From a virus, in IMG/VR virus record IMGVR_UViG_3300034072_001378, positions 35,659 through 99,658 of that record: a DNA stretch of 64,000 nucleotides; one strand, 5' to 3'. Below are positions 5,916-49,344 of this stretch, piece by piece. How positions within the stretch are numbered: position 1 is the first letter of the stretch; every line of letters starts with the position of its first letter. A model generated the notes under the pieces. The model made no database searches and was not told the DNA's origin. It saw only the letters and a list, made by a program, of their open reading frames with translations. A program made the position numbers and the translations under genes.

Positions 5916-6086
5916 AAAAATTTAGCTAAACTTTTTTGAAAAAGAACTAAAGCAGTACTAAATAGGTTCGTCCATTTAGTTTAATTAAGATTTCCAACTT
6001 AATTATAAATTGCAATGTTTTTCTGAGTGCAAAAGAACAAAGTTCTATGCATAAACAGAAAGTAAAGCTTAAAAAGGAGAATTAAA

Positions 6087-7514
6087 ATGGCAGAAATGTT
6101 GTCACCAGGCGTATATATCACGGAAATTGACGCAAGTCAAATCGTACCAACAGTTTCAAATTCAGTTGCAGTGTTCAGTGGGAATTTCCATCAGGGTCCT
6201 GTTAATAAGTATCAAATTATAACATCAGTAGATGAATTAATTACATATTATGGAAAACCTTCTAACACAAATTATAATGATTGGTATCAGGTTTACAATT
6301 ACCTACAATATTCTAATAAATTGCTAATATCAAGAGCTGCTAATACAGGTGGAACAAATACACCAATAAGTGGTGTTGTAACTTCAGAGGAAATCTTAGA
6401 AAACACAACAGATACATTTATTGTTGCAGAAACAACTGAAATAAAAGCAAATGATCTTATTAGTTTAGGCGACGATAACCTTAATTTTTACTTTGTAAAA
6501 TCAGTTACTACTGATTCATTGGCAGGAGAAACAACAATCGTTCTAGATAGACAAATCGAAACAGATTTTATTGCAGGAACAACAGTTAATTCTTATAAAG
6601 CACATATGAATGGTGTTGCAGAAGCTTTAAAAGAATCTTCAACAGCAGTTATAACAGATGATATGTACTACGGTAAATATTTAGTTATTGAAAATTCAGA
6701 TGATTATGAAATGAAAGAAACATCGTTAGCATTTGTTAACAACGATTCTAAAATCAAAATTATCGCAAAAAATCCAGGTAAATGGTCAGAAAAATTAGAA
6801 ATTGCAATTGCAAAACCTAGTGATTTTGGTGCAAGTAAAAAAGTATTTGATGGTATCTCTTTAGATGACCTTTATGAATACAGACCAACTGGTACTCAAG
6901 TAGGTATTGTTATAAGATATGAGGAAGAAATTAAAGAAATCTTTACAGTTGATTTTGATATGAACGCAAAAGATATTAATAACAAAAGTACTTATATTGA
7001 AACAGTTATTAATGGTTCAAGTTCTTACATTTATATTAAAGATAATGTAGATGTTACAGAAGATATTAAATCATATATCTTTGATGAAGAAGGAACAATT
7101 GAATTAGTACTTGGAAGAGACTCAGATATTCAAGCTGATGATTTATTAACAGCTTACGAAGTTTGGTCAAATAAAGAAGAAATTGAAATTGATATAATTA
7201 TCGCGAATGAGTTAGATAGCGGTGTAAGTGCGAAAAACCTTGCAGAAGCTAGAAAAGACTGTATAGCGTTTGTTGGAGCTGGGTATTCTGACACTGTTGG
7301 TAAAAAAAGTTCAGATGCGGTTGCTAAACTTATTGAATGGAGAACTACTGGTTCTTTAAATTTTAATAGTATGTTTGTTGCAGCATTCGCGAACTATAAG
7401 TACCAATATGATAGATACTCGGACAAGAACAGATGGGTAAACATCGCTGGCGATTGTGCCGGATTAAGGTCGGCAACAAATACAGACAGAGCTTCGTGGT
7501 GGGCAAGTGCAGGT
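6087..7514 (+). CDS. gp18: tail sheath protein, exon 1 of 6 (join 6087-7514, 7858-7923, 9406-9564, 9859-9974, 10273-10330, 10680-10775; 640 aa)
   Basis: LSPGVYITEID N-terminus, YQYDRYSDKNRWV...GDCAGL, ends WWASAG immediately before intron 1. Confidence 0.95.
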
Positions 7515-7857
7515 TAGAGATTTTCTAGGCCTGTTTATAAAATTAGAAATTTTATAATGGAATTCTTTTAATTGCTGGAACATCCTTAGAGTTGAATTAT
7601 AAGTTTGAAATTTATTTTAAATTTTAAACCCATGAACAAGATTCAAATTGGACAATCAGCAGCTAAGACATATATTAAATATGTAAAGTTCAGAGACTAT
7701 CCCAAAATGGGAGTACACTTATAGTTATAAAATTAAGTGGAAAAGGAGAACATCTTAAAAATTAAATGTTTAAGATGAAGATATAGTCCAATCTATATAG
7801 AAATATGTAGTTGTTTATAAACAACATATAAAGTAACGACTTATATGAAATATAATG
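7515..7857 (+). ncRNA. group I intron 1 (IA-like, no ORF) in tail sheath gene
   Basis: P1 gcaggU pairs with gcctgt (U-G at splice site); P aattgctggaa, Q aatcagcagc, R ttcagagacta, S aagatatagtc; ends in G. Confidence 0.92.
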
Positions 7858-7923
7858 CTAGAAAGAGGACAAGTTAAAAATGTAATTAAACTTGCTTTCA
7901 ATCCTGTACAGGCCATGAGAGAT
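7858..7923 (+). CDS. gp18: tail sheath exon 2 (LERGQVKNVIKLAFNPVQAMRD)
   Basis: continues the conserved W.S.AG-L.RG....KLA.NP....RD sheath motif. Confidence 0.93.
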
Positions 7924-9405
7924 TAAAAAAAATTATATAAATAAATTATATTTAATATAAGAAAGTCTCGGTAAAAAAGTAATTTTTTACAAAAATAAAT
8001 TTATCTAATTGCTGGAACATCCTTAGAGTTGAATTATAAGTTTTAATTTAAAAATTAGAACCCATGAACAAGATTCAAATTGGACAATCAGCAGCTAAGA
8101 ATTATTACATTTTTATATTAAAATTCGGAACTTTAATATAAGGAAAAATATATGAAACAAAAAATTAAACAATTAATAGAAAATTTTATACAAAATACCA
8201 ACAATATTGCTACTTTAAATAGTAGAACATTATTTGTTCGAGAAAATATGGAAGAAATTAAGAAATTAACTGATTTCTTACCAGAAAATTCTAAAGTAAA
8301 TGAAAGATTATATTTAATATATAATGAAATTTTTACTTTAGAAGAAATAAAATGTCCAATGTGTAATAACAATAAAAAATTTTATACATTTACAAGTGGA
8401 TATAATCTTTGTTGTTCTCGATCTTGCGCGACTAAATATCAACAAAACTTTTTAATTTCTAAAGAACAAAAAGAAATAATTTACAAAAAACGAACAGAAA
8501 ATAACCGTAAAAAACCAAAAGAAGTTTTAAGGGCTGAAGCAGACAAAAGAATAAAAACAACAATTGAAAGATATGGTGAGAATGCATTCTCACTTATAAG
8601 TAAAAAAGGTCATCAAACTAAATTAAAAAATGGTAATTATGTTGCGCCTTGGACAATTTTAAAAAATAATAACCCAATAAAATGGAAAGAAATGCATTTT
8701 AAAGCAGCTGAAACTATGAAAAATGACATAGATGAAAATGGTAATAATCATTATGATAGAGTTCATATAAAGAAATTAACAGTGTTAGATGAGAATGGAT
8801 TAAATAAATCAAAGAGTACATCTAAAACACTTAAGTAATATAGACGAGAACGGGAATAATTATTACGAAAGAAGAAATTTAAAGAACTATGAAACAGGTG
8901 TTTGGACTAAACCAGAAGACAAAACATTATTAGAACAATATAAAATAAAGGTTTAAAAGTTCATGTATAAATTTAAGGAAGAAATTAAACAATTAAAAAA
9001 TTTTGAATTAAGAGGTAGAACATCCGAAAATGGTTATCACTTGGATCATAAATTTTCCATTAAAGAAGGGTTTAACCAAAAGATTGATCCCGAAATAATT
9101 GGTCATATTTGTAATTTAGAAATGATTCCTGGTGAAATAAATCAATCAAAAATAGAAAATGCAGTATAGAATTAAACTCATTAATAAATGATATAAATAA
9201 TTACAACACCGAAAAGTGTATAAACTAAAATGTAATAATTAAAGTTCAACGACTATCACATAATGTGAGTACTGGGCAAGTGCCCGGGAAATGGTAGACA
9301 CCCTTTGTTCCGAAATATTAAAGGGTGAAGATATAGTCTAATCTATATAGAAATATATAGCAGTGAAAACGATTTAAGTTTAACGAGCTTAAATGAATAT
9401 AAATG
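7924..9405 (+). ncRNA. group I intron 2, carrying a degenerate HNH endonuclease ORF in the P6 loop region
   Basis: P1 gagaU pairs with agtctc (U-G); P/Q at 8007-8097, R gttcaacgacta ~9244, S aagatatagtc ~9329; ends in G at 9405. Confidence 0.92.
8152..9228 (+). pseudogene. intron-encoded HNH homing endonuclease, disrupted
   Basis: CPMC..CSRSC zinc motif, IDENGNN repeats, YHLDHKFS...IGHICNLEMIPGEINQSK HNH core; frameshift ~8810, in-frame TAA ~8953, second frameshift ~9155. Confidence 0.75.
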
Positions 9406-9564
9406 TTCTTATACAAAAACGGGTTAAATCCAATTGTAAGCTTTCCTGCTCAGGGTACTGTGGTATGGGGGCAAAAGGTGCTTTTAGATAAAGCAAGTTC
9501 TTTTGACCGTATAAATGTGCGAGGTCTTTTTAATACTTTAGAAAGATCATTAGCAAAAATGGCT
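9406..9564 (+). CDS. gp18: tail sheath exon 3 (FLYKNGLNPIV...DRINVRGLF...AKMA)
   Basis: LY..G.NP.V, WGQK.L, FDRINVR.LF sheath motifs. Confidence 0.95.
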
Positions 9565-9858
9565 AAAATATTTGGCCCTTTCAGAAGAGATTCTGAAATG
9601 AAAAACCTTTTAATTGCTGGGAACTCTAAGTCTTATTGAAAATAAGATATGACAATCAGCAGCCAAGGTTCAAATAGAAATTAATTTGAACAAGGTTCAA
9701 CGACTATCCAGAGATGGAGTACACTCAAGTGAGTGGAAATGGAGGTTACCTATAAAGGTAAAGATATAGTCTGAACTGTTTAGAAATAAACAGCTAATTT
9801 TAAAAATTTTATATTTTAAAATAGATTTAAGTTTAACGAGCTTAAATAAACATATTTG
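9565..9858 (+). ncRNA. group I intron 3 (no ORF)
   Basis: P1 ggcU/aaa pairs with tttggcc (U-G); P,Q,R,S elements present; ends in G at 9858. Confidence 0.92.
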
Positions 9859-9974
9859 AAGTATCAAGTAATGGAGTTTAACGACAACTTCACAAGAAAC
9901 AGGATTATAAGCATGATTAAGCCGTTCTTGTCTTCGGTACAGGCTGGAAGAGGTATAGCCGACTTCTTGGTGAT
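9859..9974 (+). CDS. gp18: tail sheath exon 4 (KYQVMEFNDNFTR...GRGIADFLV)
   Basis: EFND.FTR and RGI.DF.V sheath motifs; phase-2 junction AT|A gives Ile. Confidence 0.93.
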
Positions 9975-10272
9975 TAATCAATAGTCACCTTTTATTGGAA
10001 ACAATAAAATAAAAAAGTTCTTTAATTGCTGGGAACTCTAAGTCTTATTGAAAATAAGATATGACAATCAGCAGCCAAGGTTCAATATTTTATATTTGAA
10101 CAAGGTTCAACGACTATCCAGAGATGGAGTACACTCAAGTGAGTGGAAATGGGAACTAACCTTTGTCTCAAACTTTTAATTTAAAAGAAAGGTTAAAGAT
10201 ATAGTCTAGACTATATAGAAATATATAGCAGTGAAAACGGTTATAGATTAACGACCTATAATGAATAAATCG
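9975..10272 (+). ncRNA. group I intron 4 (no ORF)
   Basis: P1 ggtgaU pairs with gtcacc (U-G); P,Q,R,S elements present; ends in G at 10272. Confidence 0.92.
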
Positions 10273-10330
10273 ATGTGATGAATCTAATAATACTCCAGAT
10301 GTAATCTCGAGAAATCAATTAGTAGTAGAT
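10273..10330 (+). CDS. gp18: tail sheath exon 5 (CDESNNTPDVISRNQLVVD)
   Basis: CD..NNTP.VI.RN sheath motif. Confidence 0.93.
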
Positions 10331-10679
10331 GAAATTTGTCTACTATAAAGAACTCTAATTGCTGGAACATCCTTAGAGTCTAAATATAGATTCAAGTTTA
10401 AAAGAAATATTTTGTTTATAAACAAATAATATGCTTTTTAAATTTGAATTGATGAACAAGTTTAGAATTGGACAATCAGCAGCCAAGGTTCAAATGAAAA
10501 ATATTGAACAAGGTTCAACGACTATCCCATAACGGGAGTACACTCAAGTGAGTGGAAATGGGTTCTATTTTATCTACTCTAACAAATGATAAAATAAAGA
10601 TATAGTCTAGTCTTTATGGAAACATAAAGCAGTTTAATTAAAACGCATTTAATAGTAACATATTAAATGGAATATAACG
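10331..10679 (+). ncRNA. group I intron 5 (no ORF)
   Basis: P1 tagtagaU pairs with gtctacta (U-G); P,Q,R,S elements present; ends in G at 10679. Confidence 0.92.
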
Positions 10680-10775
10680 GTTTTCATAAAACCAAATTAT
10701 GTTGCAGAATTTGTTCATCTTAAATTTACTAACGCAGGGACAAATAGTTTTGCGTCAGTAATTGGTGGGGCATAA
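10680..10775 (+). CDS. gp18: tail sheath exon 6 (VFIKPNYVAEFVHLKFTNAGTNSFASVIGGA-stop)
   Basis: IKP...E.I.L.F C-terminal sheath motif ending at TAA. Confidence 0.93.
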   Translation, partial: VFIKPNYVAEFVHLKFTNAGTNSFASVIGGA

Positions 10776-10781
10776 GAATTT

Positions 10782-10811
10782 AATTAAATAGAAATTAATT
10801 TCTATTTAATT
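10782..10811. repeat. perfect 30-bp palindrome after sheath stop
   Basis: aattaaatagaaatt|aatttctatttaatt. Confidence 0.8.
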
Positions 10812-10831
10812 TCACAAATTTGGTAAAATTT

Positions 10832-10866
10832 AAAAGCTATGTAGAGAAAATCTGCATAGCTTTTTT
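10832..10866 (+). terminator. Rho-independent terminator after sheath gene
   Basis: aaaagctatgtaga-gaaaa-tctgcatagc plus T run. Confidence 0.75.
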
Positions 10867-10899
10867 AGTTTTCTAAAACATGAATTAGAGTTAATTAAA

Positions 10900-10923
10900 C
10901 TTTAATAATCTTTAGTATATAAT
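10900..10923 (+). promoter_or_regulatory. early (host sigma70-type) promoter repeat
   Basis: ctttaataatctttagtatataat, 2 mismatches from the CTTTAATATTCTTTTGTATATAAT consensus. Confidence 0.65.
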
Positions 10924-10941
10924 AAAATAAAAAGGATAAAA

Positions 10942-11169
10942 ATGGATACAATAATTGGATGGTTTAAAAGTATAGTAGGGTTTGTTTTTGGAACATTATT
11001 TTTGAGTTTTATAAGTGGATACTTAATCGGAAATTATTATGCAACAAAAGCAGCAATACAAGATAAAAATTTAATTACACCACACAATATAATTTCAATG
11101 ACGTTATTAAGGGCTTATGAAGTTCCTGGAGCAGAAAAATATACATATAAAAATTATGATAAAAAATAA
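10942..11169 (+). CDS. hypothetical membrane protein
   Basis: hydrophobic N-terminal helix; RBS and early promoter upstream. Confidence 0.6.
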   Translation: MDTIIGWFKSIVGFVFGTLFLSFISGYLIGNYYATKAAIQDKNLITPHNIISMTLLRAYEVPGAEKYTYKNYDKK

Positions 11170-11383: not shown

Positions 11384-12172
11384 ATGGCTAATGTAGTACA
11401 AACAATGATACACAATGCTTTGGGTGATGGTGCTAGAAGTACAAAATTTGAATGTTATATAGGGTTAGATACTTTTGGAGCTGGATCAAAAACAATTAGT
11501 ACAATGGTTAAAACTGCTTCATATCCAAGTAAATCACATGATGTAATAGATTTTAAGTTCAAAGGTAGAAATATTCCTTTAAGAGGGCAAGTAAAATATG
11601 AACAAACTTGGACTTGTAATTTCTATATGGATGAATCTCATACATTAAAAAAAGCGTTTGAAGATGCTATTGAAGCTTTAGATGAAGTTCACACATATGA
11701 TGATCCAAATGGAACGGTTGCTAGACAACAGGGTAGAAATTCATCTAGATATACAAATACAATAACAATAGTTCAATTAGATTTTGATGGTTCTCAATCT
11801 ACCGCAATTTATACATTGTATAATGCATTTCCTAAAAATATAACTCAAATAGATATAGATTATTCAGAAGTTGGGAAAATTTTAGAATTCTCGGTTGAGT
11901 TTGCTTATTCTCATTTTGATATGCAAGTAGTAAAAGCACCTGATGGTTCTTTTATAGATGGAATAAAAGGCAGATTTTTAGGTGCTGTTGAAGGATTAAT
12001 ACAAAAAGGTAAGGATGCCGCGGCTGCCGCAATTGGGGATTTAATAAGTTCAGCAAAAGATTATGTAATGGCTAATGGCGCTGGTGATATTTTTGGAGCT
12101 ATTGGTTCAGGAATAGATTCTGCATTACTTTCATTGGAACAAATTGATTTTAATCCAAGTTCTATGTGGTAA
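11384..12172 (+). CDS. gp19: tail tube-like protein (gp19 paralogue)
   Basis: GARSTKFE, TASYPSKS, FKGRNIPLRG, YNAFPKNI.QID, EFSVEFAYS tube motifs. Confidence 0.8.
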   Translation: MANVVQTMIHNALGDGARSTKFECYIGLDTFGAGSKTISTMVKTASYPSKSHDVIDFKFKGRNIPLRGQVKYEQTWTCNFYMDESHTLKKAFEDAIEALDEVHTYDDPNGTVARQQGRNSSRYTNTITIVQLDFDGSQSTAIYTLYNAFPKNITQIDIDYSEVGKILEFSVEFAYSHFDMQVVKAPDGSFIDGIKGRFLGAVEGLIQKGKDAAAAAIGDLISSAKDYVMANGAGDIFGAIGSGIDSALLSLEQIDFNPSSMW

Positions 12173-45729: not shown

Positions 45730-46058
45730 TGGAAATATCAGTAATAATAAATGGAGTACCTCAAATGGTAGCAGTTTCTAAGCTAGAAGCTCTACCTGAT
45801 GGAACATTTGCAGAATATTACAACGAAGATGGTACTATTGATACAGTGACAGAAGATAGAGTGAAAGCTGAAAAAGAAGCTAAAGATAGTATCAACGAAG
45901 CTAAGCAATATCTAACAGATACAGATTGGATAGTTGTTAAGCTACAAGAAGCACAATTACTTGGAACAGATATATCTGAAATGCTTACAAAGTATTCTAC
46001 AGAACTTACAAAAAGAGAAGAATGCAGAGCTTTAATAAATAAATTAGGAGGTAACTAA
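45729..46058 (+). CDS. tail fibre assembly chaperone-like 2
   Basis: AKQYLTDTDW..VK and KREECR motifs. Confidence 0.65.
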   Translation: MEISVIINGVPQMVAVSKLEALPDGTFAEYYNEDGTIDTVTEDRVKAEKEAKDSINEAKQYLTDTDWIVVKLQEAQLLGTDISEMLTKYSTELTKREECRALINKLGGN

Positions 46059-47230
46059 TGATAAAAATTAGTGGGACAACTGGTATAGATATGGGAGGAA
46101 ACCCTGTATCTAATGCTACAGACGTTGAAACAAATAGAGGAAATTTAACTGAAGTTTTTGACTTTACTTCATTTAGCAAACCAAATGAATATAAAAATAA
46201 AGTTATATTTACAAAAACTGATCCAGCTGGATTCTCAATACCTGCTGGTGTAATTGTTAAAGTAAATAATAATGTTATAAAACTAGAAAATATAATTAAT
46301 TTAAGTTTAAATACAAATCTAGACATTGGGGCGAAAGTGCCTGGAACAGATTATTATGTTTATATTTCAGAAGATGGATCTGCTTTTATTAGTGCAAATA
46401 AGAATATTACAACATCTAGATTAATAGGTGGATTTCATTATGGATTAACAGGCGAAACTGAAATAAGACCTTCACCGTCTTTAAAAACTGAATCAGATAT
46501 GATTATGAATAGAGGTATTAAAGGATATTCATTTTGGGATTTGGCTTGGTTACCTTCTAATGGAATACCAGAAGGTAAGGTTCTAGTTAATAATATGTTT
46601 TGGAGAGATATATACCCAGCTGATTCAGATTACGCAATAAGAGGTTATAGTTCTTGTTTTGCGATAGGTGGAGGTATTGCAAAACTTGCGGGTGGAGCAG
46701 CAACAAACGGGAGATTATTTCCAAAAATACCAATAAGTTATGGTGGTAATGGTACTATTAATTATGGATCTTTAACATGGTATGAATCTTCTGAAATTGC
46801 GGGTTCTGTAGGTGGAAGATTGCCTAATTACGCAGAATTTGCAAATAGTTCTTATGGTGTTGTTGAACAAAAATCTCTTGGAGAGTTAGGTTACGCAACA
46901 GGAACAGGAAATATACAACATTATCCAGAACTTGAAAGTAAATGGGGTGTTGAGATGGCGACGGGTGTTCAATATTATTGGGGTTCACAGATTATGAATG
47001 GGTATGGGACCACTGATTTTGCTCATAGATTAAATTTAACAGAAGGCAGGGGGTCTTTATACTCTACATCAAACTCACCTATAGGTATAAGATTAGGTGG
47101 TTATGAATTAGGTACGAGTACCGCTGATGTAGCTGGTTCACGTTACTTGAATTTGTCTGATTATGTGTGGCGCACTGATTGGTATTATGGTTTTTGCGTA
47201 CTTTGTGACCACATGAACCTTGCGGTGTGA
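46058..47230 (+). CDS. DGR target protein: tail fibre/major tropism determinant-like (CLec fold) with C-terminal VR
   Basis: IGGFHYG, FWDL.W.P, RLP.Y.EF, S.WG..MATG...WG, GSRY.N...W and CDH C-terminus; VR matches TR. Confidence 0.9.
   Translation: MIKISGTTGIDMGGNPVSNATDVETNRGNLTEVFDFTSFSKPNEYKNKVIFTKTDPAGFSIPAGVIVKVNNNVIKLENIINLSLNTNLDIGAKVPGTDYYVYISEDGSAFISANKNITTSRLIGGFHYGLTGETEIRPSPSLKTESDMIMNRGIKGYSFWDLAWLPSNGIPEGKVLVNNMFWRDIYPADSDYAIRGYSSCFAIGGGIAKLAGGAATNGRLFPKIPISYGGNGTINYGSLTWYESSEIAGSVGGRLPNYAEFANSSYGVVEQKSLGELGYATGTGNIQHYPELESKWGVEMATGVQYYWGSQIMNGYGTTDFAHRLNLTEGRGSLYSTSNSPIGIRLGGYELGTSTADVAGSRYLNLSDYVWRTDWYYGFCVLCDHMNLAV
47116..47212 (+). repeat. DGR variable repeat (VR)
   Basis: 97 bp aligned without gaps to 47738-47834; 13 mismatches, all at TR adenines. 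Confidence 0.97.
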
Positions 47231-47244
47231 GTGAAAACTCACAC
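47225..47244 (+). promoter_or_regulatory. DGR target-recognition hairpin downstream of VR/IMH
   Basis: gtgtgagt-gaaa-actcacac, perfect 8-bp stem with GAAA loop overlapping the target stop codon. Confidence 0.88.
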
Positions 47245-47271
47245 ATAAATACATTACACTAAAGGATAACA

Positions 47272-47697
47272 TTGCAAATAATAAACGAAACAAATAAAAT
47301 GATAGAAGATTTTTTAAAGATACAGAATATAAAAAAATTTCTAGAGGAAGATCTTGGCGAAAATATAATTATAATTAGAAAATATGATGCATTTCTTAGA
47401 TATGTTTATCCAATTATGCTAAAAATACCAAATGAGCACAAATATCTAAAGGATTCTTTAATTTCTAATATTTTTGAGACTATAGATCTGATAAATAAAG
47501 CTTTAAAAACTGATCAAATATCTAAATTATATGAAATTGATGCTAATCTTTCATCAATTAGATATAAAATTAAATTCTTAAGTTCAGAAAAAATAAGATC
47601 AGTATCGACCGAACAACTGAAAATTTCTAATATATTACTTTCTGAAGTTGGTTCTATTCTAAACTCTTGGATTACAAGTAAAAGAAGTAGAAGCTAA
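47272..47697 (+). CDS. avd: accessory variability determinant (Avd, four-helix bundle); TTG start uncertain
   Basis: P.M..IP..HK.L...L, LYEIDA.L..IR..I.FL, IS..Q......LL.EVG.IL..W pattern; between VR and TR. Confidence 0.85.
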   Translation: MQIINETNKMIEDFLKIQNIKKFLEEDLGENIIIIRKYDAFLRYVYPIMLKIPNEHKYLKDSLISNIFETIDLINKALKTDQISKLYEIDANLSSIRYKIKFLSSEKIRSVSTEQLKISNILLSEVGSILNSWITSKRSRS

Positions 47698-47737
47698 ATA
47701 TAAATATAATGTACCTAATGGTACAGGGTTAAAGATA

Positions 47738-47834
47738 GAGTACCGATAATGTAGCTGGTTCACGTAACTTGAATTTGAATAATTATGTGTGGAACACTAA
47801 TTGGAATAATGGTTTTTGCGTACTTTGTGACAAA
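47738..47834 (+). ncRNA. DGR template repeat (TR)
   Basis: non-coding, nine AAY codons in target frame, matches VR except at adenines. Confidence 0.97.
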
Positions 47835-47997
47835 TTTATTTAGAAATAGGTCAGTCAGAACTGCTAAGGCACAATGGTGATCTTCAATTTTAAATGGTCA
47901 GCTTTAATCCCGTGTAAACAAATTATATGGGTCTGGATAACTACGAGTACGACAATATGTTTGGAAAGTAGAAGCCAGCATTTAACAAAGGAATTTA

Positions 47998-49344
47998 TTG
48001 AAGAAAATAACAAGAACACAAAAAGTAAAAAATTTTTTAAGAAAATCGCCTAACTATATGCTAATTAGTTCTAAAAGAAAAGAATTAGACAACTACACAT
48101 TATCTGAATTGGGATTTCTTTTAAAAGATTATGAAATAATTCAAGAAATAAAAAGAAGAAAACAGTATTATATAAATGCAGAAATAAAACAAAAATATTT
48201 GACTTCTATAAAAATACCTGAAATTCCAAAAAAGAAAAGCAATAAATATAAAAATTTGATGAAATATATCACACAAGATTCAAATTTATTAAATGCATTT
48301 TATAAAGCGGCAAAGGGTAATAAAAACAGTAAATCATATTTTAAATTTAATAAAAATAGAGATATAAATTTAACAATACTAAAGAATGAATTATTAGAAA
48401 AAACATATAAAAGAGGAGATTATTATACATTTATTGTTTTAGATCCAAAAGTAAGAGTTATTAATTCTTTGTCATTTAGGGATAGAGTGGTTCAACATGC
48501 TATAAACAATATTATAGAACCAATATTTGAAAGAACATTTTATATACATTCTTATGCATGCAGAAAGAATAAAGGTACTCATAAATGCGCAAAAGAAACA
48601 CAAGCTGCAATTAGAAGAATAAATAAAAGGTATGGAACTTGTAAAGTTCTAAAAATGGATTTTTCCAAATATTTTTCATCTATAAATTCTGATATTCTTA
48701 TAAATGAGATAAGAAAAAGAATAAAGGATGAAGAACTTATGAATATTCTTTTGCAATATATAAATAATATTGGAATAAATATTGGTAACTTATTATCACA
48801 GTTATTCGCTAATATTTATGGAAATATTTTTGATTTATATATAAAACACGAATTAAAAATAAAATATTATTTTAGATATATGGATGATACCGTTATTCTT
48901 TCAAATGATGTGAATATTCTCTATAATATAAAAGAAAAATTAGATAAATTTATAAAAACCAAAATGAATCTTAAATTTAGTCATTGGTACATACATGATG
49001 TTGAGGAAAAATCAGTGAATTTTGTTGGATATAGAATAAGAAATAAATATAAACTAATAAGAAAACAAACTTCATTAAGGTTTAAAAGAAAATTAATTAA
49101 ATTTAATCATATTTTAAAAGAAAATTTAAACGAATTAAAGGATCTTTTATTTGATTATAGGGAAATATATAATATACCATATCATTTTAAGTATAAAATA
49201 TTTAAAATACTTCAAGAAAATTTTAATTCATTTGAGATGATATTGGGTGCATATAAGGGTATATCATTGTTAGCAGATAATCAAAAAGTAAAAATTAACT
49301 TAAAAGGAGAATATACAAAATGGAAGAAAATGCAATTAACATAA
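47998..49344 (+). CDS. DGR reverse transcriptase
   Basis: K.R.I.SLSFRDRVVQHA, SYACRKNKGTH, KMDFSKYF.SI, GNLLSQLFANIY, YFRYMDD, NFVGYRI motifs. Confidence 0.97.
   Translation: MKKITRTQKVKNFLRKSPNYMLISSKRKELDNYTLSELGFLLKDYEIIQEIKRRKQYYINAEIKQKYLTSIKIPEIPKKKSNKYKNLMKYITQDSNLLNAFYKAAKGNKNSKSYFKFNKNRDINLTILKNELLEKTYKRGDYYTFIVLDPKVRVINSLSFRDRVVQHAINNIIEPIFERTFYIHSYACRKNKGTHKCAKETQAAIRRINKRYGTCKVLKMDFSKYFSSINSDILINEIRKRIKDEELMNILLQYINNIGINIGNLLSQLFANIYGNIFDLYIKHELKIKYYFRYMDDTVILSNDVNILYNIKEKLDKFIKTKMNLKFSHWYIHDVEEKSVNFVGYRIRNKYKLIRKQTSLRFKRKLIKFNHILKENLNELKDLLFDYREIYNIPYHFKYKIFKILQENFNSFEMILGAYKGISLLADNQKVKINLKGEYTKWKKMQLT

Follow-up and report, generated by a model that had tools for sequence, protein, structure and literature searches.

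Group I introns in virion genes, and phage genes holding two or three of them, have been published before, and it is the density of the introns that is unusual in the system described here. The tail-tube gene orf142 of Staphylococcus phage Twort contains three group I introns and undergoes exon skipping (Landthaler and Shub 1999, as recounted in PMC11878797). We analysed a 64-kb window (the whole stretch of DNA studied, ~26% G+C and T4-like in gene order) of the 127-kb, ~68% complete IMG/VR virus record IMGVR_UViG_3300034072_001378. Judged by its sequence, positions 6087-10775 of this window contain a tail sheath gene of the T4 gp18 type, divided into six exons by five group I introns; the phage is an uncultured T4-like myovirus with very AT-rich DNA. 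As in Twort, a late myovirus tail gene holds several small introns of the IA type, most of them without an open reading frame (ORF), and has short internal exons; with at least three introns in one virion gene, the locus is also of the orf142 type by count. The two differ in intron number (three in orf142, five here and six in a close relative, L141) and in gene and phage group (a Herelleviridae tube, a T4-like sheath), and splicing and skipping were shown for Twort whereas the present system is known from its sequence alone. The cores of the window introns resemble those of Staphylococcus phages (151 of the 351 matching records), and also cores from phiKZ-like, Enterococcus and Vibrio phages. 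We consider it highly probable that an AT-rich T4-like sheath gene has here been colonised by selfish, mobile group I introns of subgroup IA and that its transcript is spliced five times.

The original prediction for this locus stated that phage group I introns usually reside in DNA-metabolism genes, which is true in part, although introns in capsid, tail and tail-tube genes have been published. T-even phages have introns in td, nrdB and nrdD, and Aeromonas phage 25 and phage JSE have them in gene 43 (Petrov et al. 2010, PMC2993671); among T4 relatives introns are much rarer than free-standing endonuclease genes (PMC2993671). Like the introns studied here, some T4-related introns carry intact and some truncated endonuclease genes, and some rely on free-standing ones, but they are single and lie in DNA-metabolism genes, in contrast to five in one virion gene. 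In Bastillevirinae, up to three group I introns per gene have been found, with exon skipping documented by nanopore cDNA (Weglewska et al. 2025, PMC11878797). These genes resemble ours in their small internal exons and IA-type cores, but only polymerase, terminase and nucleotide-metabolism genes are involved, with fewer introns per gene than here, and the same authors ask why structural genes are spared (PMC11878797). Cluster J mycobacteriophages have capsid and tail introns whose splicing was confirmed by reverse transcription PCR (PMC3706429); there, as here, virion-gene introns are present in some of the close relatives and some contain endonuclease genes, but each gene has one intron and there is no paralogous array within ~500 nt of coding sequence. 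Tape-measure genes of Bacillus cereus-group prophages also contain group I introns, again with no array of that kind. Jug phages have ~18.5 group I introns per genome over many genes, with terL in two or three fragments (PMC12880540). Jug and crAss-like phages share with the present system many introns, split essential genes, adjacent endonuclease genes and presence/absence variation; in Jug phages the introns are spread genome-wide, whereas here all copies in 127 kb lie within one gene. Among the published phage genes that we found, none has more than three introns and none is a T4-type sheath gene. Here there are five (six in a 98%-identical strain) within ~165 codons, with exons down to 58 nt, an array that lets the cost of many introns to a highly expressed virion gene be asked.

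The ORF at 6087-7517, which ends in ...WWASAG and a stop codon, shows 62% identity to residues 1-485 of the annotated gp18 of Vibrio phage Va1. With the complete, uninterrupted Va1 gp18 as a tblastn query, the remaining 163 residues were found downstream as five ordered pieces, so that all six exons, and the junction peptides that had been predicted, were recovered in order:

6087-7514, plus strand: exon 1, 1428 nt, codons 1-476, ending ...WWASAG; its last base, U, pairs with G of the guide GCCUG(U).
7858-7923, plus strand: exon 2, 66 nt, LERGQVKNVIKLAFNPVQAMRD; tblastn match to Va1 gp18 residues 486-507.
9406-9564, plus strand: exon 3, 159 nt (FLYKNG...AKMA); tblastn match to Va1 gp18 and frame check.
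9859-9974, plus strand: exon 4, 116 nt (KYQVMEFND...FLV, with 2 nt of an Ile codon at its end); its identity to Va1 residues 561-599 is 95%.
10273-10330, plus strand: exon 5, 58 nt, (I)CDESNNTPDVISRNQLVVD; tblastn match to Va1 residues 600-618 and frame check.
10680-10775, plus strand: exon 6, 96 nt including the stop codon (VFIKPNYVAEF...VIGGA*); tblastn match to Va1 residues 617-648 and frame check.

Joined, the exons total 1923 nt, or 640 amino acids (aa) plus a stop, and contain no stop codons or frameshifts. The insertions between them are 343, 1482, 294, 298 and 349 nt long, and with borders fixed by script a T precedes each and a G terminates each. The spliced product aligns to Va1 gp18 as one segment, gap-free at the junctions, with 68% identity over residues 1-639. 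The Va1 protein matches solved T4-type sheaths with expectation values (E) of 1e-78 to 1e-83, and its residues 446-636 match pyocin, Afp and PVC sheaths; all five window introns fall within this C-terminal domain common to contractile sheaths. An intron-less relative, P0002, has both PF04984 and PF17482, the Phage_sheath_1 and Phage_sheath_1C families. The six exons, their coordinates and junctions and the 640-aa sheath thus hold as predicted, by the Va1 tblastn, the frame check and an alignment to an uninterrupted relative described below. The predicted sizes of the two smallest exons (66 and 58 nt) were also correct, as was the estimate of about 490 nt of coding sequence, for which exons 2-6 measure 495 nt. 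These results support the structural reading of a gp18 sheath gene with five group I introns, each sheath subunit depending on five splicing events.

A search with the Rfam model RF00028, one of the checks that had been suggested for this locus, placed four of the five introns above the gathering threshold of 50 bits: introns 3, 4, 1 and 5 score 108.1, 97.4, 72.5 and 61.0 bits (E 4e-27 to 5e-13). Intron 2 has a split core and was matched as two halves because an ORF of ~1.1 kb sits in its P6 loop; the 3' half scores 44.8 bits with RF00028 (E 1e-9), and with a hidden Markov model (HMM) of the intron family the halves give E 1e-27 and 1e-37. Neither RF00028 nor the family HMM found a further intron anywhere else in the 127-kb record, window included. 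The introns are:

7515-7857, plus strand: intron 1, ORF-less, 343 nt; RF00028 72.5 bits, E 1.8e-16; its first codon is an in-frame UAG; P1 of 6 bp and adjoining P10 of 8 bp (UUUUCUAG against CUAGAAAG).
7924-9405, plus strand: intron 2, 1482 nt, with a decayed HNH-type endonuclease gene in the P6 loop; starts with an in-frame UAA; core halves at ~7966-8115 (5') and 9226-9405 (3'), joined by a perfect 11-bp P6 stem (8100-8110 / 9230-9240); P1 of 5 bp, P10 of 8 bp.
9565-9858, plus strand: intron 3, ORF-less, 294 nt; RF00028 108.1 bits, E 4e-27; P1 GGCU/GGCC, P10 of 6 bp.
9975-10272, plus strand: intron 4, ORF-less, 298 nt; RF00028 97.4 bits, E 6e-24; P1 GGUGAU/GUCACC, 6 bp.
10331-10679, plus strand: intron 5, ORF-less, 349 nt; RF00028 61.0 bits, E 5e-13; P1 of 9 bp (GUAGUAGAU/GUCUACUAU).

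The weight of the identification lies in the core matches, in guides whose P1 and P10 are contiguous (6+8, 5+8, 4+6 and 9+5 bp in introns 1, 2, 3 and 5) and in the exact restoration of the reading frame. Further structure is seen between P7 and P3', as an insert that follows GACUA in all Rfam alignments of the window introns. Two covarying hairpins, P7.1 and P7.2, are predicted in it (columns 236-248 and 252-275 of the alignment). On the Michel-Westhof scheme, we take this pair to assign the introns to subgroup IA. Across five ORF-less copies, the same five sequences from which the structure was derived, 29 of the 57 predicted pairs show compensatory changes and 96.8% of the cells are paired; when the 3' partner was slid along the alignment, pairing fell to 35-43% with 4-8 compensatory pairs, and shuffled controls reached at most 85.6% paired. 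Such changes among paralogous introns support the view that these are folded and presumably functional ribozymes. Pairwise identities among the five window introns are 59-80%, and we rejected the idea that they are recent duplicates, since values in this range mark paralogues rather than recent copies. Translation from the upstream exon would meet an in-frame stop at the first codon of introns 1 (UAG) and 2 (UAA) and after 3, 5 and 24 codons in introns 4, 5 and 3, respectively. In the T4 td gene, stops of this kind close to the 5' splice site protect the ribozyme against translating ribosomes.

We propose that five paralogous subgroup-IA introns, belonging to one mobile family of the clade, colonised the conserved C-terminal domain of the sheath, and that a late pre-mRNA of ~4.7 kb would splice itself five times to give the 1923-nt mRNA for the 640-aa protein. 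In this model an internal guide would form P1 with the 5' exon, placing a U.G pair at the cut, and in introns 1-3 and 5 also P10 with the 3' exon; free guanosine would attack after the U, and the released 5' exon would then attack after the terminal G. The in-frame stops may exclude ribosomes from most of the ribozymes. Actual splicing of the sheath pre-mRNA is something we infer from these features of the DNA.

An assembly artefact, with mis-joins driven by repeats, or a dead gene in a decaying prophage-like remnant might in principle produce a similar picture. The introns do have identical stretches of 30-60 nt in common, where contigs from short reads break off, and the source record is only ~68% complete. 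Independent contigs nevertheless contain every junction. Logan contigs of run X1 tile positions 6000-10900 with no mismatch and include all exon-intron junctions, both junctions of exon 2 lie inside single contigs of runs X1 and X4, several of the junctions are also contained in contigs from the runs of other studies, and the sequence of the locus is present in runs of 8 studies. The separate assembly of L141 repeats this layout, apart from one additional intron and one at a shifted site, and its exons again total 1923 nt. Exons free of stops and frameshifts, together with covarying intron structures, also argue against both possibilities, and we regard an artefact or remnant as hardly credible. 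Run X1 also holds a minor relative in which exons 4, 5 and 6 are joined exactly at the predicted borders, corresponding to empty sites for introns 4 and 5, and this contig differs at synonymous positions only.

The distribution of the introns among relatives was more informative about their history than the window itself. No close cultured relatives were found, and megablast returned only a 33-nt match between an intron core and Flavobacterium phages. Nine IMG/VR sheath relatives at 32-64% identity have no introns, which at first sight makes the window a singular case; closer, intron-bearing relatives overturned this view. At one extreme is L137, a Logan contig in which positions 233-2149 encode an uninterrupted 638-aa sheath, 92% identical to the spliced product over 640 residues, with no Rfam match in the gene; judged by its sequence, it is a natural intron-less allele. 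At the other is L141, an ENA contig of 32.9 kb (sheath gene at 6001-10930) whose exon 1 is 98% identical to that of the window. It has six introns, at codons 476, 498, 535, 557, 590 and 609, and exons of 1428, 66, 107, 71, 97, 58 and 96 nt. Compared with the window, L141 has an extra intron at codon 535, and its codon-557 intron replaces the one at codon 551 (intron 3); the latter site is occupied in L143 and empty in L141, where GCG stands in place of the window's GCU. At the DNA level, L141 and the window are 98-99% identical upstream of position 9521 and 90.5% identical downstream of it. Other relatives, with exons 75-88% identical, contain members of the same intron family at different sites of the sheath gene, and introns are also found in a more distant gene (L102):

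L016 (metagenome contig RRZU010348529.1, 1-5201): at least five introns, at codons 9, 66, 367, 372 and 391.
L014: introns at codons 9 and 449.
L138: introns at codons 449, 476 and 590.
L139 and L140: introns at codons 9, 66 and 469.
L143: introns at codons 9, 476, 513, 535 and 551.
L145: intron at codon 442, with an intact GIY-YIG gene.
L147: introns at codons 471 and 498, and near codon 9-12 the 3' end of an intron.
L102, the more distant gene: introns close to codons 367, 513 and 557 (three in all); for the one near codon 513 the 3' splice site could not be placed, as no G stands at the expected frame position.

In L016, a 14-nt exon (2928-2941) separates two introns, two or three introns contain endonuclease ORFs (among them a 339-aa ORF and an HNH ORF matching phrog_655), and the contig ends before the C-terminal part of the gene. 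In L147, a 279-aa ORF lies on the minus strand at 2066-2905, between an intron 3' half and the next sheath exon. The clade as a whole has 17 insertion sites in the sheath gene, 12 of them outside the window's five. The sites lie in conserved stretches: for the 11 at which local identity was measured it is 0.54-0.83, the overall value being 0.54, and the variable region of codons 100-200 contains none of the 17. These relatives, which vary chiefly in their introns and include an intron-less allele, offer material for studying how introns arrive at new sites, for which homing with changing endonuclease partners and reverse splicing are candidate routes. A comparable richness in introns, with endonuclease genes and variation among strains, is found in the cox1 gene of fungal mitochondria, an organellar setting unlike that of a phage sheath.

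Only one of the window introns has a recognizable endonuclease gene, and it is decayed:

8152-9169 (pieces 8152-8838 and 8963-9169), plus strand: remains of an endonuclease gene in intron 2; the C-terminal piece matches phrog_5104, E 2e-18.

The gene is broken by a 108-nt insertion (8627-8734) and by a TAA stop at ~8954-8956, and aligning the remains to the 339-aa ORF of L016 requires crossing a stop and changing frame. L141 and runs X4 and X5 lack the 108 nt, have TAT in place of TAA and retain an intact ORF of 323 aa. The L016 ORF also matches phrog_5104, a family without assigned function. A Pfam search of the intron ORFs found no HNH domain, and the endonuclease assignment is made from PHROG matches together with an HNH motif seen by eye; ORFs bearing this motif are intact in L141 (8065-9036, 323 aa) and L016 (387-1403, 339 aa) and are predicted nucleases; the intact ORF of L145 lies at 2008-2610. 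The window itself contains no intact intron-encoded HNH homing endonuclease ORF.

Variable intron content, empty alleles, intact and decayed endonuclease genes, and the drop in identity at position 9521 therefore point to a cycle of homing by selfish introns. The introns would be passengers spread by homing endonucleases, for which intact HNH and GIY-YIG genes are present in the relatives' copies while that of the window is dead, and the phage may tolerate the intron swarm since the introns splice. Homing is thus the probable means of spread. It is also possible, though we hold it only tentatively, that the introns are kept because they are of benefit in mixed infections, where each occupied site would be immune to the matching endonuclease brought in by a co-infecting relative, and endonuclease-bearing copies would cut and convert rivals (marker exclusion). 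Many variants that differ in their intron sets occur together in wastewater and subsurface samples, relatives have intact endonuclease genes, and the change from 98-99% to 90.5% identity across 9521 between the window and L141 is what co-conversion tracts predict; an intron endonuclease that acts in phage competition has been published for PhiPA3 (as outlined in PMC11620839). The sole endonuclease gene of the window is dead, however. A benefit in mixed infections is compatible with colonisation by mobile introns, with the array as the record of an arms race and not of pure parasitism.

Several points weigh against colonisation by mobile, spliced group I introns. As a single unit, intron 2 stays below the Rfam threshold, and the P10 of intron 4 is weak, at 2 bp. 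The predicted U-G pair in a clear P1 and the terminal G were confirmed for all five introns, but P1 helices of 4-9 bp are on their own within chance in AT-rich DNA; helices of at least 4 bp occur at about half of random U positions, and we rejected P1 as stand-alone evidence. The window's genome has no intact intron-encoded endonuclease, and homing from it is for this reason currently impossible. Homing alone, moreover, does not explain ORF-less copies at 17 sites. Finally, wastewater runs labelled RNA-Seq behaved like DNA and contained no exon-exon joints that we could see, which is not evidence against splicing.

The variation among relatives also bears on the function that the original prediction assigned to the introns. 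While its account of the gene's anatomy stood, its suggestion of splicing-dependent control or exon skipping found no support, and the variation of intron content among near-identical strains counts against it. Under that suggestion the introns are a control device: splicing would set the timing or amount of sheath, or skipping of exon 2, of exon 3 or, by extension, of exons 4 and 5 together would generate variant sheaths. The arithmetic behind in-frame skipping was right, exons 2 and 3 being multiples of three (66 and 159 nt), and exons 4 and 5 sum to 174 nt. Exon skipping by group I introns has been published for orf142 of Twort and for phage SIOphi, and the yield of full-length mRNA must drop with each added intron. 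A regulatory device is nonetheless difficult to reconcile with intron counts of 0 (L137), 5 (window) and 6 (L141) in sheath genes that are 92-98% identical, or with the use of 12 other sites by relatives, several of whose copies contain homing-endonuclease genes. The skippable exons, moreover, code for the protein's most conserved region (0.65-0.84 local identity versus 0.54 overall), and variants made by skipping are unlikely to be functional because they would lose pieces of the C-terminal domain that all contractile sheaths share. We consider a role in control or in sheath variation very improbable.

A route through RNA has been considered for the arrival of introns at new sites, in which an intron would insert by reverse splicing into sheath mRNA where its guide meets short matches, and reverse transcription and recombination would then bring it into DNA. 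GAU precedes nine of the 17 5' splice sites, whereas in the coding sequence it accounts for 7.6% of U positions (binomial P ~1e-6, calculated post hoc); the guides at GAU sites share the core GUC, and two sites share GUGAU followed, past the cut, by A, with the guide GUCAC. The majority of intron copies contain no ORF, and introns that are neighbours resemble one another most (80% and 78% identity). A reverse transcriptase is encoded in the genome as well, within a diversity-generating retroelement (46058-49344), although any link to the introns is speculation. Its parts, by Pfam, are:

46058-47230: Mtd-like target protein.
47272-47697: bAvd.
47998-49344: reverse transcriptase.

Retroelement reverse transcriptases of that type are template-specific, however, the GAU bias may stem from shared descent of the guides or from the target preference of an endonuclease, and gene conversion between neighbouring introns would equally make them alike. 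To our knowledge, no phage has been shown to fix an intron in its genome through reverse splicing. An RNA route to new sites thus appears unlikely, and slightly less likely still is the specific form in which this intron family would reverse-splice wherever a GUC-core guide meets ...GAU in sheath mRNA and then become fixed in DNA. If the latter were true, this clade would offer a natural setting, the first of its kind, for tracing group I intron transposition by reverse splicing among close genomes.

The colonised sheath genes are a hazard for annotation, since gene callers give the sheath as a truncated protein of 337-476 aa without a Pfam domain. Database proteins at least 70% identical to exon 1 are nearly all truncated ORFs of this kind, lacking a Pfam domain, and more distant sheath proteins in the databases are mostly full length. 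Downstream of the sheath gene in the window, a 75-aa ORF (10942-11169) without a Pfam match precedes the next large gene, at 11384-12172, which has no intron and a weak, sub-threshold match to the T4 gp19 tail tube (Pfam E 5.5e-4); its counterpart in L141 carries PF23849, Phage_TTP_2.

Beyond the sheath clade, the P3-P5 core motif of the introns is present in at least 112 IMG/VR contigs, a few of which have clusters of three or four introns. In a GC-rich contig, L097 (positions 1-1900), three to four intron cores lie within ~1 kb after the 3' end of a major head gene (phrog_283), with a GIY-YIG-like ORF beyond them, and three or four cores are found in L026, L045, L116 and L030 as well. Two candidates for sheath introns in described phages were set aside. 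In Campylobacter phage CJLB-14 the sheath is given as two coding sequences 70 nt apart, which is not an evident intron. In Vibrio phage D181 (L135, 145.6-146.6 kb) the intron sits in an RNA-polymerase beta-like gene and not in a sheath gene; that gene is annotated only as hypothetical proteins, and its related intron carries a homing-endonuclease gene.

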